NCBI GenBank assembly: GCA_964596065.1
Contig: CAZQSM010000002.1
Span: 10,361-74,360, forward strand
Length of the DNA: 64,000 nt
From: an uncultured Chlorobiaceae bacterium
GTDB lineage: Bacteria > Bacteroidota > Ignavibacteria > UBA10030 > SZUA-254
Reading direction: 5' to 3'
In this document: piece after piece, positions 10,236 to 36,883 of the stretch
Numbering within the stretch: position 1 is the first letter of the stretch
How the letters are laid out: every line of letters begins with the position of its first letter
Made by a program: the position numbers and the translations under genes
The notes under the pieces: model-generated
What the model was told of the DNA's origin: nothing
Database searches by the model: none
The model's input: only the letters and a program-made list of their open reading frames with translations

Positions 10236-10596
10236 GTACGGCACCGACGAGTGGAAGCTGGCCCGCAGCCTCCGTTCCATGCCCTCCGACCTGTTCATCC
10301 GGAAGACGACCGCGGACGCGTTCCACTCGACACCGCTGGAGCGGATCCTCAGGGAACGTGGCGTCGATGAACTGGTCATCTGCGGGATGCATTCGGAGTT
10401 CTGCGTCGACACGACGACACGCCGGGCGCTGGCTCTCGGTTTCCCGGTCATCCTCGTTGCCGACGGGCATACAACGCAGGAGAAGGAACACCTATCGGCC
10501 GCCCAGATCATCCGGCACCAGAATGCCACACTGACGAACATCATCAGCTTCGGTCCGCGAGCCCGCGCCGTTTTCACCGCCGATGTGCATTTTTGA
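10063..10596 (+). CDS. isochorismatase-family cysteine hydrolase
   Basis: ALLVIDVQQG ... VDELVICGMHSEFCVDTTTRRALALGFPVILVADG gives the catalytic Asp/Lys/Cys arrangement of the isochorismatase family. Confidence 0.7.
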   Translation: MKPALLVIDVQQGLCRGAEDSFDTTGVIDRINTVADRARAAGAPVFFIQHEGRNGYLEYGTDEWKLARSLRSMPSDLFIRKTTADAFHSTPLERILRERGVDELVICGMHSEFCVDTTTRRALALGFPVILVADGHTTQEKEHLSAAQIIRHQNATLTNIISFGPRARAVFTADVHF

Positions 10597-28402: not shown

Positions 28403-28978
28403 ATGAGCGACACGGAAAAAGCCCTTGCCACACAACTCGAAAACCTCCAGAAACGCTCGGGAAAGACGCTCGCGCAGCTCGAAAAAATCATCCGTTCGAG
28501 CGGGCTCACCAAACACGGCGAGATCCGGGACATGCTGAAGCGGGACCTCGGCATGGGACACGGCGACGCCAACACGCTGGTGCACGTCGTCCTGAAATCG
28601 GACGGGGCGGGCGCCGCGGCCGACTCGGGGCTCCCGGCCGGCGACGTGGTGGCGGGCTTCTACGCCGGGCCGAAGGCGGCCCTCAGGCCGATCCACGACC
28701 TGCTGATGAAGGAGATCTCCGGGTTCGGCGACTTCGAGGTCGCGCCGAAAAAAACCTACGTGAGCCTGCGGAGAAAAAAACAGTTCGCGATGATCGGGCC
28801 GGCCACGAAAACGCAGGTGGAGGTCGGCATCAACACGAAGGGACTCAAGGCGACGGGCCGGCTCGTGGAGAATCCCCCGAACAGCATGTGCCAGTACAGG
28901 GTGAGGATCTCCGACGTGAAGGAGGTGGACCCGACGCTCATCGGCTGGATCAGGCAGGCGTACGAAGGGGCGGGCTAG
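28403..28978 (+). CDS. DUF4287 + DUF5655 domain protein
   Basis: N-terminal KTLAQLEKIIRSSGLTKHGEIRDMLKRDLGMGHGDANTLV (DUF4287); C-terminal FEVAPKKTYVSLRRKKQFAMIGP (DUF5655). Confidence 0.5.
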   Translation: MSDTEKALATQLENLQKRSGKTLAQLEKIIRSSGLTKHGEIRDMLKRDLGMGHGDANTLVHVVLKSDGAGAAADSGLPAGDVVAGFYAGPKAALRPIHDLLMKEISGFGDFEVAPKKTYVSLRRKKQFAMIGPATKTQVEVGINTKGLKATGRLVENPPNSMCQYRVRISDVKEVDPTLIGWIRQAYEGAG

Positions 28979-29052
28979 TTCCCGCCCCGGATGGCAATTC
29001 TCCCCGAAATTCGTTAAATTCCTCCATATTCGTTCCCACACACCGGAATTTG

Positions 29053-30438
29053 ATGAATATCACCGACGTCGACGTTCAATTATTGAGGAAATATTCGGTC
29101 GCCGGGCCCAGGTACACAAGCTACCCGAGCGCGCCCCTCTTCTCCGAAAAATTCCGGTCCGAAGATTACCTCGCCGAAATCCGGGACACCAACCCCGACG
29201 GCCAGGACGCCCCGATTTCGATCTACGTCCACCTCCCCTACTGCGATACCCTCTGTTATTTCTGCGGCTGCACGATGAAAGTCACGCACGACCCGTCGCA
29301 GATCACCGACTACAACCGGTACCTCAAGAAGGAGATCGCGGCGATCGCGCCGCTGGTCTCCCGGTCGCGCCCCGTGGTCCAGCTCCACTGGGGCGGGGGG
29401 ACGCCGTCGTACCTGAGCGCCGACGAGATCAGGGACCTGGGCGCGTTCCTGAAGTCGACGTTCTCCTACGCTCCGGACATCGAAGCCGGCGTGGAGATCG
29501 ATCCGCGCGGCCTGACCCGGGACCGGATGGAAGCGTTCAGGGAATCGGGATTCAACCGTGTGAGCATGGGGGTGCAGGACTTCAATCCCGAGGTGCAGAA
29601 GGCGGTGAACCGCGTCCAGTCGGAGGAGATCACCCGGGACGCCGTGGAGTGGAGCAGGGAGCTGGGATTCCAGAGCATCAACATCGACCTCATCTACGGA
29701 CTCCCCCACCAGTCCGTCGCCCAGTTCGCCGAAACCGTCGACAAGGTGATCGCCCTCTCGCCCGACCGGCTCGCGGTCTTCAATTACGCCCACGTCCCCT
29801 GGCTCAAACCGCACCAGAAGGTGATCGACGACTCGACCCTCCCCTCGCCGGAGGAAAAACTCGGGATTTTCCTGATGACGCTCGGAAAGCTGATCGGGGC
29901 CGGGTACGTCAACATCGGCATGGACCATTTCGCCAAGCCGGACGACGAACTCGCCATCGCCCGCGACAACGGGACGCTCTACAGGAACTTCCAGGGATAT
30001 TCGACCAAGTCGGGATGCGACATGTACGCGTTCGGGATGTCGGCCATCAGCTTCCTTGGAGGGGTGTACCACCAGAACCTGAAATCGATACACGATTATT
30101 TCGGACGGCTCGACGAGGGGAGGCTCCCGACGCACGCCGGTTACCGGATGACGCCCGACGACGTGGTCCGGCGCGAGGTGATCATGCGGATGATGTGCGA
30201 CAACGAGGTGATGAAGGCCGACGTCGGCCGGAAGTTCGGGATCTCGTTCGACGCCTATTTCGCGGACGCGCTGGTGAAACTCCGGCAGTTCACCGGGGAC
30301 GGACTCCTGGAGCTGCACGCGGACAGGATCGTGATCACCCCCCCGGGCAGGCTGATCGTCCGGAACATCGCGATGTGCTTCGACCCCTACCTGGAATCGA
30401 TGCGGAAGGACACGCCCGTCTTCTCGAAGACCGTCTGA
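29053..30438 (+). CDS. hemN: oxygen-independent coproporphyrinogen III oxidase (radical SAM)
   Basis: CxxxCxxC radical-SAM motif YCDTLCYFCGC, GGGTPSYL, and the HemN C-terminal domain. ATG at codon 56 of ORF 28888..; the upstream extension was rejected. Confidence 0.85.
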   Translation: MNITDVDVQLLRKYSVAGPRYTSYPSAPLFSEKFRSEDYLAEIRDTNPDGQDAPISIYVHLPYCDTLCYFCGCTMKVTHDPSQITDYNRYLKKEIAAIAPLVSRSRPVVQLHWGGGTPSYLSADEIRDLGAFLKSTFSYAPDIEAGVEIDPRGLTRDRMEAFRESGFNRVSMGVQDFNPEVQKAVNRVQSEEITRDAVEWSRELGFQSINIDLIYGLPHQSVAQFAETVDKVIALSPDRLAVFNYAHVPWLKPHQKVIDDSTLPSPEEKLGIFLMTLGKLIGAGYVNIGMDHFAKPDDELAIARDNGTLYRNFQGYSTKSGCDMYAFGMSAISFLGGVYHQNLKSIHDYFGRLDEGRLPTHAGYRMTPDDVVRREVIMRMMCDNEVMKADVGRKFGISFDAYFADALVKLRQFTGDGLLELHADRIVITPPGRLIVRNIAMCFDPYLESMRKDTPVFSKTV

Positions 30439-30844: not shown

Positions 30845-31049
30845 CGTTATCCTCCACGGATTTCCAAAATCAGGGTCGAAATGTAAGTTGATTCATCCAA
30901 AATATCAACTAACGCCCGGAAAACCTTGATTTTTAAGAGAAAATAACATATCCTAGGCCGAAAGCTTTTAAAAACAATCCGATATCCGGGATTTCGATAT
31001 CTGCGCGTGTCCGGTCCGGGAGGGTCGACACCGGGAGGAGGAACAACCA
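30845..31049. promoter_or_regulatory. AT-rich divergent intergenic region (probable back-to-back promoters for the SPOR gene and the coiled-coil receiver gene)
   Basis: About 205 nt with clearly lower GC than the 68-70% background (runs such as TTTTTAAGAGAAAATAACATATCC). Flanked by divergent gene starts. GGGAGGAGG ribosome-binding site precedes ATG 31050. Confidence 0.5.
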
Positions 31050-33323
31050 ATGGCATCATCCAAAGAACACACCCATCTCGAGTTTCGGGGCTTCCTGCGG
31101 CAGGCGGACAAGTTTCTCGCCGAGGCAAGGTTCACTGAGGCGAAGGAGGAGCTTGAAAAAGCAAGGAAGCTCGATCCCGCGAATCCATTCATCCGCGCGT
31201 TCGACGAGCGGATCTCGCTCTTCGAGGTAAAGTCCAAAACCGCCGCCGGAGACGAACAGCCCGTGGGGGGCTCCGGGAGGGACGCGAAACCAGCCGCGCC
31301 ACCCCCCGGCCGCGCCCGCAGCGCCGCAGAAGTCGGGGGGCCGGAGCCGGGCGTCCCGCCGGAGGTGCGGATGGGGGTGGAGGAGGAAATCAGGCGGAAA
31401 TATACCGAGGAGGTGCGGAGAGCCGAGGAACGCGCCGCGAAGCTGGTGGCCGAGGAGAAGGAGCTGCTGGAGAAAAATTTCCTGAAGCAGCGGCTCGAAA
31501 ACGAACGCGAATTCGACAAGGTCAAGCAACGCTACGAAAAGGAATACCAGGAACGGCTCGCCACCGAGATCCGGAAGACGGAGATGCGGCTGGAGGGGGA
31601 ATACCAGTCGGAGCTCGCACGCCTGGAGGGGGACCTGCGCACGAAACTCCACCAGCAGTTCCAGGCCGACCTGGTCGAAGAAAAGGAGCGGTTGAAGAAT
31701 GAACTGCGCGGTCTCGCCGACAAGGAACGGCATTCGGCGGCCGAGATGGAGCAGGGGCTCCGCGCGGCGTTCGAGGCGCGGCTCGCTGAAGAGCTGGAAA
31801 AAGCCGGGATGGAACTCCGGCTGCAGCTGCAGGAAACGCACCGCCGTGAGGAGGAGAAGCTCAAGATCACGCTCACGGAGGAATTTGAAAACCGGCTGAC
31901 CTACGAGCGCGACAAGATGAAGGAAGAGTTCGACAAGCAGCGGAGGAAGGGGGACGACCTCCACCGGATCGAACTCTCAAAGGCGCGCCAGGCACAGGAG
32001 GAACTCGAGAAGAAGATGCGGGACGAGTTCAACCGGAGGCTCCTTGAATCGGTCAGGAAGGCCGAAGTGGTGTACGAAGAACAGGCGGCGCTCCGGCTGA
32101 AGGAGGAGCGGGAAAAACTCAGGCACCAGCTCGAAGGGGAGTTCCGCGCGGAACTCGAGCGTGAACGCAATGCGCTCAGGGTGGAGTACGAAAAACTGAA
32201 GGCGTCGCTCGAAGCCTCCGCCGACGACGAATCCGCCGGGGTCAGGCAGCAGGCGGAGGCGCGGATCCGCGACCAGGTCGACGCGGCGAAAAAGCAGCTC
32301 GAGGAGGAACTCGGGCGCCGGTCGACGGCCCTGCGCAACGAGCTGGAATCGAAGTACCAGATCGAGTACGAGGCGAAGCTCCACGACGAACGGGAGAAGA
32401 TCAGGAAGGACGCCGACCTGAAGATCGAAGCCGAGACGGCGCGCCTCGACGCCGGGTTCCAGGCGAAGATCCGCGAGCAGGAGGAAAAGCTCAAGGCCGT
32501 CCGGAAGGAGCTTCGGGCCAGGATGGACGAGGAGCTGCTCCGGCGGATGGAATCGATGGCGTCCGACTACGAGACGAAACTCGACCTGCTGGGCGTGCGA
32601 CTCCCCGAAACCCGCGCGGAGCAGATGCACCACTACCGGGAGGCGATGCTGGCCCGGTACGCGAAGGGGGCCCTCGACGTGGAGGACGCGAAGAAGCTCC
32701 TCCAGCTGAAGGAAATGCTGGGGCTGACGTTCGACGACCACCTGGTCATCGAGGGCGAAGTGCGGTTGAAAACGTACTCCGACCGGATCCGGCAGCTCGT
32801 CGTCTCGGGCGCCCTGGACCCTGAAGACGAGGTGGCGCTCGGGAAGCTCAAGGAGAAATACGACATCACCGAGGAGGAATCGAAGACGCTCGAACACCAC
32901 CTGCTGGCGAGCTTCGGCAAGCTGCGCGTGAAGGGCCGGCTGATGGTGGCGGACGACGATCAGCTGCTCCTGAGGACCCTCGAGGACATCCTGGGCGACG
33001 CGGGGTATGCCGTGGTCACGGCGCCCGACATCGAAACCGCCATCGCACACCTGAAGACGACGCCGTTCGACCTGATCCTCAGCGACATCAAGTTCTCGGA
33101 CAACGAATTCGAGGGGTTCGCCTTCTTCAAGCAGGTCCAGGGCATCCCGCCGTACGCCGGCATTCCGTTCATCTTCATGAGCGCGCTCTCCGACGGCGTG
33201 ATCGTGAGGTCGGGAATCCAGCTCGGGGTGGACGATTACCTCACCAAGCCGATCGAGCCGGAACTCCTCCTCGCCGTGGTCGAGGGGAAGCTGAAGCGCT
33301 TCCGCGCGATGAAGCTCCAGTGA
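31050..33323 (+). CDS. 757-aa protein: N-terminal TPR-like helix pair, about 550-aa charged coiled-coil, C-terminal response-regulator receiver (REC) domain
   Basis: Residues about 120-600 are a continuous E/K/R/L heptad-like region. The last about 125 aa carry REC signatures: acidic pocket ADDD, phospho-acceptor LILSDIKF, MSALSD, YLTKP. Confidence 0.7.
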   Translation: MASSKEHTHLEFRGFLRQADKFLAEARFTEAKEELEKARKLDPANPFIRAFDERISLFEVKSKTAAGDEQPVGGSGRDAKPAAPPPGRARSAAEVGGPEPGVPPEVRMGVEEEIRRKYTEEVRRAEERAAKLVAEEKELLEKNFLKQRLENEREFDKVKQRYEKEYQERLATEIRKTEMRLEGEYQSELARLEGDLRTKLHQQFQADLVEEKERLKNELRGLADKERHSAAEMEQGLRAAFEARLAEELEKAGMELRLQLQETHRREEEKLKITLTEEFENRLTYERDKMKEEFDKQRRKGDDLHRIELSKARQAQEELEKKMRDEFNRRLLESVRKAEVVYEEQAALRLKEEREKLRHQLEGEFRAELERERNALRVEYEKLKASLEASADDESAGVRQQAEARIRDQVDAAKKQLEEELGRRSTALRNELESKYQIEYEAKLHDEREKIRKDADLKIEAETARLDAGFQAKIREQEEKLKAVRKELRARMDEELLRRMESMASDYETKLDLLGVRLPETRAEQMHHYREAMLARYAKGALDVEDAKKLLQLKEMLGLTFDDHLVIEGEVRLKTYSDRIRQLVVSGALDPEDEVALGKLKEKYDITEEESKTLEHHLLASFGKLRVKGRLMVADDDQLLLRTLEDILGDAGYAVVTAPDIETAIAHLKTTPFDLILSDIKFSDNEFEGFAFFKQVQGIPPYAGIPFIFMSALSDGVIVRSGIQLGVDDYLTKPIEPELLLAVVEGKLKRFRAMKLQ

Positions 33324-34881: not shown

Positions 34882-35406
34882 CTACGCGGTGAGGCGACCG
34901 CGGAGGCGGTCGCGCATCAGCAGGAGCTCCTCGCGGACCGAGAGGTCGAATTCAGCCCTCGCCGCGTATCCGAGACGCCTGCGGATTGCTTCCTGCAACT
35001 CGCCGGGGGGCGGAAGGGGAGGGGGCGCGACGAATTCATACCCGAATTTGCTCCTGTAGTAACCGAGGTCGTCGATAACCGCAGCGGGAAGGGCCTCGCC
35101 CCCCTCGAACGTCCGTTCGCGGAGCGCCTCGCGCCGGTCGTCGTCGCCGAGGCAGTGCCAGATGACCTCGGCCGCATTGAACACCACCTGGATGTTCCAG
35201 TACGGCCTGCACCCGGCCAGGGCGGCCGCCCACCGCGTCGAGCCGCAGCAGGAGAGGAAGAAATCCCTCGCATTGTCGCCGGACATGGTGTTGAGCTGGT
35301 CGAGGGTCGGCACGGGATCGGGGGTCAGGGTATGGGCCAGGCGTGGCGTGTTCGTTATCGGCGAATGGGCTGCCGATATGGTATCGAACTCCGGCGTGAA
35401 AAACAA
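34882..35406 (-). CDS. OHCU-decarboxylase-like protein (UraD family)
   Basis: FLSCCGSTRWAAALAGCRPY and YRSKFGYEFV resemble UraD conserved blocks. The domain probably starts at the internal Met (about 35286), since the N-terminal 40 aa have no counterpart. Confidence 0.45.
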   Translation of the reverse strand: MFFTPEFDTISAAHSPITNTPRLAHTLTPDPVPTLDQLNTMSGDNARDFFLSCCGSTRWAAALAGCRPYWNIQVVFNAAEVIWHCLGDDDRREALRERTFEGGEALPAAVIDDLGYYRSKFGYEFVAPPPLPPPGELQEAIRRRLGYAARAEFDLSVREELLLMRDRLRGRLTA

Positions 35407-35539
35407 ATCCTCCCGGCGTTGGAATTATTCCACCGGTTTGATATACTGCACTCCGGGCGCGGATCGCCGGTCTCTCGCCGGCCGCGGGGAACTTCCCCGC
35501 TCGCCCGTTGTTCTGAAGAAACGACACCGACCATTGCCG

Positions 35540-36883
35540 ATGACATCCACGCTTCGAACGCTCCTCGGAACCGCCCTCGCGCTTACGCTCCTTTCCCCCG
35601 CCGGGGCACACTCCCAGCGCAGGTTCGTGCTCGAAGGCGCGACCCTCATCAACGGGATCTTCGACCGGCCCCTCAAGGACCACGTCGTCGTGGTCGACGG
35701 CGGCCGGATCACCGGTGTCGGGCGGAGGAACAAGGTCATCATCCCCCAGGGCGCCGAAACGATCGACATGACGGGAAAGTACATCATACCGGGCCTCATC
35801 GACGTCCACGTCCACGAGGAATCCATGGGCGACTGGCCGCTCTTCCTGGCGTGGGGGGTCACGTCGGTCAACTGCATGTACGAAAATTCCGACACGGCGA
35901 TGGAGCGGGAGGCGTGGAGCCGGTCCGACACGCTTGCCGCGCCGAGGATCTATTCCACGGCGACCATCTTCACCGCCAGGGGAGGGTGGTGGGAGGGTGA
36001 CGGCTTTCCCGACGACCCGGCCGTGAACCGTTTTCCGGAGAACCCCGCCGAGGCGCGGGCGGCCGTGCAGGCGCTGCACGCCCGCGGGATCACCCGGATC
36101 AAGCTGATGGTCGACGACATGGGCTGGTGCCGCGACCCGCTGCCGCGACTGCGGAAGATGGACCCGGCCGTGATGAACGCCCTCCTCGACGAGGCGAAGA
36201 AACTCCGGATTGCGGCCGAGGTGCACGCGCCGAACCTCGCCGACGCCGCCGCCGCCGTCGGCGGAGGAGCGTCATCCCTGGTCCACGGCATCATCGACAG
36301 GCGCCTCGACGCGCCGTTCATCGAATCGGTGCTGGCGGGCGACGTGTTCTACGTCCCGACGTTCTCGCTCTACAGCTTCCTCGCGTCGCCGGAGGGCTTC
36401 GTCGCGCGGGCGCTGGCCGACAGCGCCTTCAGCGCCGCACTCCCGCCCGTCCGCGTCGGGAAGCTCACGGCGCCGGAGTACGCCGCGACCTACCTGGAAC
36501 GGTATCCGAACCAGGCATACGTGGCCGACCACCTCGCCATCCTCGACGCGAACGCCTCGACGATGGCGGGCAACTACGCGCAGATCGCGCTCGGGACCGA
36601 CATGTGGGCCTTCCCGGGGATCGGGGCGCACCTCGAACTCGAGTCGATGACCGCGGCCGGGCTGACGCCGATGCAGGCGCTCACCTCGGCGACCTTCCTC
36701 TCGGCGAAGATGCTCCGGATCCTCCCGCGGACCGGGACGATCGAGCCGGGGAAGGACGCCGACATCCTGGTCCTCGACGCCGACCCGCTCGCCGACATCC
36801 GGAACACCCGGTCGATCGCGATGGTCATCAAGCGGGGGAAAATCTTCACCCCGGACAGTCTGCTCGCCGCGCCGGCCCGATGA
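35540..36883 (+). CDS. secreted metal-dependent amidohydrolase-family protein
   Basis: Signal peptide MTSTLRTLLGTALALTLLSPAGA; GLIDVHVHE metal-binding HxH motif; C-terminal GTD...DADILVLDADP typical of the amidohydrolase superfamily. Confidence 0.7.
   Translation: MTSTLRTLLGTALALTLLSPAGAHSQRRFVLEGATLINGIFDRPLKDHVVVVDGGRITGVGRRNKVIIPQGAETIDMTGKYIIPGLIDVHVHEESMGDWPLFLAWGVTSVNCMYENSDTAMEREAWSRSDTLAAPRIYSTATIFTARGGWWEGDGFPDDPAVNRFPENPAEARAAVQALHARGITRIKLMVDDMGWCRDPLPRLRKMDPAVMNALLDEAKKLRIAAEVHAPNLADAAAAVGGGASSLVHGIIDRRLDAPFIESVLAGDVFYVPTFSLYSFLASPEGFVARALADSAFSAALPPVRVGKLTAPEYAATYLERYPNQAYVADHLAILDANASTMAGNYAQIALGTDMWAFPGIGAHLELESMTAAGLTPMQALTSATFLSAKMLRILPRTGTIEPGKDADILVLDADPLADIRNTRSIAMVIKRGKIFTPDSLLAAPAR

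Follow-up and report, generated by a model that had tools for sequence, protein, structure and literature searches.

The gene at 31050..33323 on the plus strand of the DNA stretch analysed here (hereafter the window: 64,000 nucleotides, i.e., positions 10,361 to 74,360 of contig CAZQSM010000002.1 in assembly GCA_964596065.1) encodes a 757-amino-acid (aa) cytoplasmic response regulator that belongs to an uncharacterised family and carries its receiver (REC) domain at the C-terminus, behind a TPR-like cap, a disordered linker, a very long rod of pentadecads and a helical domain similar to those of Tic110 and ENT proteins. We are highly confident of this five-part architecture (Table 1). As to how the protein works, we favor, with a probability of about 0.5, the hypothesis that it is a kinase-controlled, rod-shaped scaffold or tether with a structural output, possibly tied to the cell envelope or to division. 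The core idea of an earlier interpretation made by eye from the letters of the window (hereafter the sequence-only reading), namely a scaffold regulator in which the usual order of REC and coiled coil is reversed, is sound; the pentadecad rod, the phase-preserving variation in its length, the Tic110-like domain and the kinase found in relatives are not visible by eye.

The five parts were delimited from an alignment of 12 relatives, from 29 genome-derived members of the family and from an AlphaFold2 (AF2) model of the full-length monomer computed with a 12-sequence alignment (predicted local distance difference test, pLDDT, 72; predicted template modelling score, pTM, 0.29). At the C-terminus stands a bona fide REC domain that, judging from its residues, is apparently phosphorylatable. 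It provides the sole Pfam match on the full protein (Response_reg, aa 632-744, 67.9 bits vs. a cutoff of 30.2, covering profile positions 2-110 of 111), while the NCBIfam matches run through REC only and stay far under their cutoffs. Of the solved relatives, the first receiver of PleD scores best (E 2e-16), and onto it the motifs MVADDDQ (D635/D636/D637), LILSD (D679), S711, the aromatic switch Y730 and K733-P734 can be placed, with D635/D636 corresponding to D9/D10, D679 to D53, S711 to T83, Y730 to F102 and K733-P734 to K105-P; compared to PleD, the beta3-alpha3 loop has two additional residues, and the Met-Pro that is customary there is missing. These results bear out the claim that the last ~125 residues form a canonical REC with an ADDD pocket, LILSD and the conserved Ser and Lys. 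The phospho-Asp, whose absence on alignment had been named as a point that would count against that claim, is invariant, together with the Lys, in all 29 members, and D635/D636/D679/S711/K733 read DDDSK in 26 of them, the other three having one substitution each (S->T, D->E and D->A). REC is 129 aa long in most members, and the unit that it forms with the preceding Tic110-like domain is, along with the cap, the most conserved part of the protein. No enzymatic or DNA-binding effector domain is recognisable by Pfam or NCBIfam in the 757-aa protein, nor does it contain any transmembrane (TM)-like segment.

The most distinctive part is the rod (aa 109-505), which by its periodicity and its core pattern is made of pentadecads. 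It is proline-free, predicted to be helical and 49% charged (E 21%, R 13%, K 10%), and the Fourier spectrum of its bulky hydrophobic residues peaks at 3.75 (15/4) with a power of 6.08, compared to 1.65 for the 99.9th percentile of shuffled sequences. The power at 3.5 is only 0.1 and that at 3.67 (11/3) about the same (0.12), so that both a canonical heptad coiled coil and a hendecad rod were rejected; a single alpha-helix (ER/K) domain was rejected as well, since, despite the high charge, a coherent hydrophobic seam takes up four of every 15 positions. That is, the long charged coiled coil of the sequence-only reading exists as a very long charged helical rod, but without the heptad signal that the term usually implies. 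Arranged in lines of 15 residues, the rod shows its bulky side chains at positions 2, 6, 9 and 13 (spacing 3-4-4-4), which correspond to the core positions a, d, h and l by which pentadecads are defined (PMC9858780), and over the whole of aa 104-515 the 3.75 signal drifts in local phase by no more than about +/-40 degrees. Across the family, bulky residues occupy these four positions in 79, 54, 53 and 59% of the cases, respectively, and Ala makes up only 2-7% of the core. To our knowledge, no cytoplasmic protein with tens of consecutive pentadecads has been described, nor did we find one in the literature searched, although no systematic survey was made.

The same register holds in the relatives, with a periodicity peak at 3.72-3.76 in 28 of the 29 members; the exception is a member with a 43-aa rod (L035). 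Spectral power rises with rod length, from 5.5-7.1 for rods of 310-311 aa to 9.5-11.4 at 521 aa and 12.8 for the 611-aa rod of L013, where 41 pentadecads follow each other without a break in register and 80% of the repeats have a bulky residue at position 2. Rod lengths fall in classes of 112, 304-311 (the commonest), 397 (the clade of the window), 521, 607-611 and 672 aa, and the differences from 311 are mostly close to whole numbers of 3.75-residue turns (86 = 22.9, 210 = 56.0, 296 = 78.9 and 300 = 80.0 turns). In addition, autocorrelation of the sequences reveals internal repeats at offsets of 75, 86 and 161 in the window protein and of 97, 105, 159 and 264 in P0012. Because the length differences are near-integer in turns and such internal repeats occur, the rods must have been lengthened and shortened in blocks that keep the seam in phase.

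According to the literature, pentadecads, with their hydrophobic residues at a, d, h and l, encode right-handed supercoiling of a strength comparable to that of the left-handed supercoiling in heptads (PMC9858780, PMC8016460). Hence, the sequence predicts that the rod is a right-handed coiled-coil oligomer, about 60 nm long if fully extended. We infer that the oligomer would be larger than a dimer, because the non-heptad core is bulky, with few Ala, while dimers with such packing need small core residues (PMC9858780).

Between the rod and REC lies a conserved domain of five or six helices (aa 506-628), which is exactly 123 aa long in 22 of the 29 members and contains an invariant F561-D562-x-H564; the sequence-only reading missed it and went directly from the coiled coil to REC. 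A profile of aa 500-630 matches the Tic110 structure 4bm5 in the PDB (E 1.1e-4), and the Pfam family Tic110 (PF16940) matches 22 of 23 family members (best E 1.1e-5), all under the gathering score, which is 27 bits compared to 20.2 bits for the window protein. For the domain taken by itself, the AF2 model (pLDDT 81.5, pTM 0.69) superposes best on ENT, EMSY and Tic110. We take aa 506-628 to be a helical repeat domain of Tic110/ENT-like appearance, the apparent likeness being one of fold or repeat type and not of membership in Tic110. An exhaustive search of 1.84 billion representatives with the domain profile returned 160 proteins at E<=1e-3, of which the top 46 (E<1e-10) are the family itself; in all of these the domain lies ~127 residues from the C-terminus, and the complete proteins among them are 396-965 aa long. 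The weaker tier includes shorter response regulators of the same domain order (P0063, P0064, P0067, P0070 and P0071; 341-530 aa) as well as genuine Tic110 proteins of ~1000 aa and TerB/Tic110-like proteins.

The N-terminal cap (aa 1-64) is TPR-like and consists of helices at aa 2-24, 28-41 and 46-64 (pLDDT 84-91 for aa 11-60), with 18 invariant residues from F12 through F58 (FRxxLRQADKF...DPxNPFIxAFxERI). It contains a single TPR-like motif at aa ~17-49 (E 0.004-0.03), which TPR_2, TPR_14 and TPR_19 match below threshold in most members tested (E 0.0005-0.2; 12-21 bits on the isolated N-terminus vs. Pfam cutoffs of 23.5-27), and no TPR match was found by Pfam on the full 757-aa protein at E<=0.1. 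A tandem TPR array, as had been suggested for a 600-aa region in front of REC, was therefore rejected, there being one sub-threshold motif and only three AF2 helices. The linker that follows (aa 65-108) is rich in Pro, Gly and Ala (21, 19 and 16%), has pLDDT values below 50 over aa 66-103 and is variable in sequence and weakly conserved among the relatives.

A search of 5.8 billion proteins with the window protein yielded ten relatives that are 63-73% identical to it and two that are 36-37% identical, all of the same architecture, and a scan of one genome per species yielded ~28 full-length loci. Homologues with this domain order, which the sequence-only reading had proposed to look for, are thus found in more than 28 genomes, each time as one gene, and no frameshift separates the rod from REC in the window. 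At 50% identity the family comprises ~46 clusters. All loci come from metagenome-assembled genomes (MAGs) labelled Ignavibacteria, Ignavibacteriales, Ignavibacteriae, "Chlorobiaceae" or Bacteroidota; a cultured host was searched for, and only MAG-derived members were found. Where a name is given, the members are called only "response regulator" or "CheY-like chemotaxis protein", no description of the family was found in the literature searched, and in the protein searches nothing beyond the family showed similarity outside REC, the other matches being REC-only. Two MAGs have two paralogues each (L023 and L029 in CAYGZC01; L020 and L030 in CAZFQL01). In these, the long paralogue (891-906 aa, 521-aa rod) is adjoined by SPOR and kinase genes and the short one (482-485 aa, 112-aa rod) lies in another context, with a single-domain REC gene upstream in L030. 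A 663-aa entry of the ENA (P0013) matches the family over cap and rod and then continues with an HSP90-like C-terminus (PF00183); rather than a real fusion, this is probably the outcome of chimeric assembly or gene calling.

Two neighbours recur in the 29 loci for which gene neighbourhoods were counted. In 14 loci (likewise at L002 and L003), the response-regulator gene is followed, after 13-177 nt, by a same-strand gene for a hybrid histidine kinase, the product of which begins with ~7 hydrophobic segments and continues with PAS, HisKA, HATPase_c and REC domains. This kinase, encoded next to the gene in most of the distant relatives, is the most informative neighbour and is invisible from the window sequence. 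It is ~725-738 aa long (L003:6676-8892, L002:11213-13390, with equivalents in L012-L015, L017-L023 and L025-L027), and its N-terminal ~220 aa, which hold the hydrophobic segments and have no Pfam match, may be an undescribed membrane sensor domain. The second neighbour is a divergently oriented gene for a SPOR (septal peptidoglycan-binding) protein, found 180-320 bp upstream in 17 loci, including relatives that are just 35-40% identical; the divergent SPOR gene that the sequence-only reading had described across an AT-rich region of the window is thereby confirmed and turns out to be a recurrent pairing. Both neighbours are present at 10 of the loci and at least one of them at 21. Outside the core of SPOR and response regulator the genes vary among clades, for instance HemN in one and an unrelated ~700-aa protein in another.

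Based on these results, we propose the following working model. Two conserved heads would be kept apart by the disordered linker and the long stiff helical rod, one head being the N-terminal TPR-like three-helix cap and the other the Tic110/ENT-like domain fused to REC. The membrane hybrid histidine kinase (~7 TM segments, PAS-HisKA-HATPase-REC) would phosphorylate D679, and phosphorylation might then act via the S711/Y730/K733 switch on the C-terminal head to alter its self-association or its binding to a partner. The rod, as a right-handed coiled-coil oligomer, would set the distance and the relative orientation to the cap, so that the outcome may be a switched assembly or tethering of whatever both heads hold. 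That the 757-aa protein is a response regulator fed by a kinase seems likely to us. A role in the cell envelope or in division is a more tentative proposal, which the conserved divergent pairing with the gene for a periplasmic SPOR protein suggests only weakly. In its boldest form the model would describe a new class of cytoskeletal response regulator: a phospho-switchable, right-handed pentadecad tether, tuned in length from species to species by whole-repeat insertion, which couples a 7-TM hybrid kinase to the division or peptidoglycan machinery of Ignavibacteria and, with as many as 41 in-register repeats (~90 nm), surpasses in length every other uninterrupted pentadecad coiled coil known from nature. 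We consider this full version speculative and rather unlikely to hold in all its points.

Several observations weigh against the scaffold or tether hypothesis and lend themselves to other explanations. No kinase, HPt protein or second REC is detectable in the 64-kb window by tblastn with the neighbour kinase, whole or in parts, and with REC (E<=1); the kinase partnership in this genome is therefore extrapolated from relatives, and the partner kinase must either be encoded at another place in the genome or have been lost. In the most divergent members (L028-L035) the gene is flanked by neither a SPOR nor a kinase gene, and every member comes from an uncultured genome. The SPOR proteins have a signal peptide or membrane anchor only, with no cytoplasmic part, so that direct contact with a cytoplasmic response regulator is unlikely, and any link between the two would run through co-regulation or a shared process rather than through binding. 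The pairing itself could reflect co-regulation or synteny inherited within one class. Taken to its end, this argument makes the protein a generic orphan adaptor, phosphorylatable and with the rod as an oligomerisation or spacer element, that has no link to SPOR or division, the adjacency being a relic of common descent within the Ignavibacteria. The lack of SPOR at 12 of the 29 loci, the most divergent ones all included, and the synteny of whole blocks in the clade of the window (HemN, SPOR, response regulator, PD40, OHCU decarboxylase and amidohydrolase) fit such an adaptor. Nonetheless, the pair of SPOR and response regulator has been kept down to 35-40% protein identity while the outer genes changed, which is the pattern expected of a pair under selection, and we regard the orphan adaptor as unlikely. 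The kinase of the relatives, moreover, is of the hybrid type and carries a REC itself, and no HPt protein turned up in its vicinity; together with an intact REC that is joined to no recognisable effector enzyme or DNA-binding domain, this would also suit a phosphate sink or a branch point of a phosphorelay, in which REC drains or buffers phosphoryl groups from the kinase and the remainder of the protein only positions REC. A sink, however, would need neither a phase-conserved rod of 300-670 aa nor an invariant cap nor a Tic110-like domain of fixed length, and rod phase, cap and Tic110-like domain are conserved as strongly as REC, which makes this explanation quite improbable.

The oligomeric state and the handedness of the rod are likewise a weak point of the scaffold or tether hypothesis, being read from sequence features alone, and the AF2 monomer shows two long helices (aa 104-299 and 345-514) with a low-confidence segment between them, which fits an antiparallel hairpin. 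Under this alternative, the protein would be a monomeric two-helix hairpin of ~30 nm in which the cap and the REC head lie next to each other, and what phosphorylation controls would be a contact between these two within one molecule rather than a long-range tether; pentadecad seams can indeed pack antiparallel as well. Yet the hydrophobic phase runs unbroken across aa 300-345, a segment with no Pro and a single Gly, and the 86-aa block (about aa 250-335) that separates 397-aa from 311-aa rods overlaps the predicted break and is missing in most relatives, so that there is no conserved turn. Single-site changes in length of 86-361 aa would also shift the tip of a hairpin every time, the pTM of the model is 0.29, and monomer AF2 predictions are known to fold long helices back on themselves. 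We think that the hairpin is less likely than the extended rod, and that it is a distinctly unlikely account of the protein. Finally, the REC domain, the long coiled coil and the Pro-rich linker resemble those of FrzS, AglZ and RomR (PMC1974792, PMC2034494), and a motility or polarity regulator of that type could be imagined. The reversed domain order, the pentadecad instead of heptad rod and the results of the protein searches given above speak against it, as does the fact that no motility, pilus, chemotaxis or Mgl-type gene adjoins the gene at any of the 29 loci examined; we find it very improbable, and nothing points to gliding, a role that the sequence-only reading had raised.

Table 1. 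Features of the response-regulator gene and its surroundings (positions refer to the window).
Feature	Residues	Position	Strand	Basis
SPOR-domain gene, 130 aa		30452..30844	-	Pfam SPOR E 2.4e-12; hydrophobic anchor/signal at aa 1-27, then SPOR
AT-rich divergent intergenic region, 205 bp		30845..31049	.	GC 0.43-0.49
Shine-Dalgarno-like GGGAGGAGG		31033..31041	+	8 nt before the ATG at 31050; direct sequence reading
Whole gene, 757-aa cytoplasmic response regulator (cap, linker, pentadecad rod, Tic110-like domain, REC)	1-757	31050..33323	+	one uninterrupted open reading frame
Cap, three helices and a single TPR-like motif	1-64	31050..31241	+	AF2, conservation, sub-threshold TPR matches
Disordered Pro/Gly/Ala-rich linker	65-108	31242..31373	+	composition, AF2, alignments
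Rod, 397 residues, ~26.5 pentadecads	109-505	31374..32564	+	periodicity, composition, AF2
Conserved helical domain, Tic110/ENT-like	506-628	32565..32933	+	two L-x-x-LK-x-x-L-x-[LI]-[TS]-x-[DE]-E motifs, invariant F-D-x-H
REC domain	629-757	32934..33320	+	PF00072 E 1.1e-18; strand/helix alternation in AF2
GAC codon of the predicted phospho-acceptor (LILSD)	D679	33084..33086	+	alignment to PleD D53; invariant in 29/29 members
PD40-repeat gene, 468 aa		33454..34860	+	PD40 repeats; N-terminal signal-like sequence

The annotated start of the gene is supported by the Shine-Dalgarno-like element upstream of it (Table 1). The intergenic region in front is AT-rich indeed, its GC content contrasting with 0.6-0.7 in the flanks, and contains a single sigma-70-like match, which runs toward the SPOR gene on the minus strand (30908->30880); no plus-strand match of this kind was found in the 205 bp, and no intrinsic terminator-like site was found 3' of the response-regulator gene. 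The SPOR protein is of a short form in the window and in L006 (141 aa); other relatives have a long form of 241-245 aa (e.g., L001:7070-7795 and L005:7056-7793), with ~110 extra aa between signal peptide and SPOR that have no Pfam match.

In the clade of the window the gene order is HemN, SPOR (minus strand), response regulator, PD40, OHCU decarboxylase (minus strand) and amidohydrolase, which the window shares with L001/L008, L005/L009, L006, L007 and L024. The PD40-repeat gene that the sequence-only reading placed downstream is present as described, but it is a peculiarity of this clade, adjoining the response regulator only in the window, L008, L009 and L024 (L025 has a partial match ~5.4 kb downstream), and it was rejected as a functional partner for this reason. 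Among NCBIfam models it comes closest to TmcD (E 1.9e-22) and TolB propellers, with matches that are partial and far below the cutoffs, and its homologues have no Pfam family in precomputed annotation. Upstream, the HemN/radical-SAM open reading frame is listed with 516 aa (28888-30438, plus strand) and a GTG start that overlaps a DUF4287/DUF5655 gene (28403-28978); since the homologues have 461 aa and their alignment sets in at about 29053, the gene probably starts close to that position. Downstream, the 174-aa open reading frame at 34882-35406 (minus strand) has an OHCU decarboxylase Pfam match limited to the first 58 of 155 profile positions, is conserved at ~143-145 aa in relatives and could belong to the OHCU decarboxylases as a divergent or truncated form. 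Relatives have an ankyrin-repeat gene between the OHCU decarboxylase-like gene and the amidohydrolase (L001:12265-12924, L006:10436-11149), which is absent from the window, where tblastn gave no match (compare 35406-35606). The neighbours of L028-L035 are unrelated to these and, judged by eye, include dUTPase-like, RecG-like, TonB-receptor-like and secreted-protein genes.

Response regulators with a structural output, such as FrzS, AglZ and RomR, are few but central to the understanding of bacterial polarity. The family described here adds to them an intact phospho-switch, unlike FrzS, a probable dedicated kinase, and two heads on a rod that evolves in discrete, phase-preserving steps, a design that would be expected of a phosphorylation-switchable molecular spacer or ruler. 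Natural pentadecads are known mainly as short segments, whereas 300-670 residues keep the 15/4 register here, and the rod may serve as a natural model of long right-handed coiled coils and as a possible building block for design. The family also offers a first handle on envelope or division signalling in the Ignavibacteria, a group with almost no cell biology.

How does the protein compare to known systems? Natural pentadecads in the trimeric autotransporter stalks YadA and SadA are short extracellular segments that switch to heptads, as opposed to the 26-45 consecutive pentadecads of a cytoplasmic signalling protein seen here, although the 15/4 periodicity specifies right-handed supercoiling in the stalks too (PMC8016460). 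Scy and FilP of Streptomyces, which function in polarity and division, have hendecad rods (3.64-3.67) with Ala-rich cores and a DivIVA-like N-terminus (PMC9858780); they are similar in being very long cytoplasmic non-heptad rods lengthened by repeat duplication (PMC9858780), but differ from the 3.75 rod described above with its bulky, Ala-poor core and its REC domain, and the 757-aa protein has no Pfam match to DivIVA. The Tic110 C-terminal repeats resemble aa 506-628 in profile and, apparently, in AF2 fold, and ENT/EMSY apparently do so in AF2 fold; only about two repeat units are present here, in a bacterial, cytoplasmic protein with no TM segment, and the likeness does not extend to protein import.

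Receivers at the C-terminus are also known from PatA-type PATAN-REC proteins, PatA itself being reportedly located at division sites in Anabaena, and from hybrid kinases. CheV, a hybrid of CheW and a CheY-like REC (PMC8789113), is a further precedent, so that the sequence-only reading was right in that C-terminal RECs are uncommon and overstated in that REC is almost always N-terminal. CheV and PatA are comparable in being non-kinase proteins with a C-terminal receiver, but the N-terminal part here is 500 aa of cap, linker and rod, and no CheW or PATAN domain was found by Pfam on the full protein.

The closest comparisons are with Myxococcus xanthus. The rods of FrzS and AglZ have been described as conventional myosin-like coiled coils, and the two proteins share with the family a CheY-like receiver, a long coiled-coil rod and an output that is neither enzymatic nor DNA-binding. 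They act as localised scaffolds (PMC1974792, PMC9811614), but with REC at the N-terminus, whereas here the rod precedes REC; the FrzS receiver is without the phospho-Asp and does not bind Mg2+ (PMC1974792), whereas every phospho-acceptor position is conserved here. The family has no sequence similarity to them outside REC and possesses TPR-like and Tic110-like domains in addition. Therefore, the suggestion of FrzS/AglZ-type regulators in reversed order is a fair functional comparison, while membership in that type was rejected based on domain order, rod type and homology. RomR, a localisation factor composed of a receiver, a Pro-rich low-complexity linker and a charged region (PMC2034494), also has its REC at the N-terminus and has no long periodic rod, and no Mgl or motility genes lie near the loci of the family.

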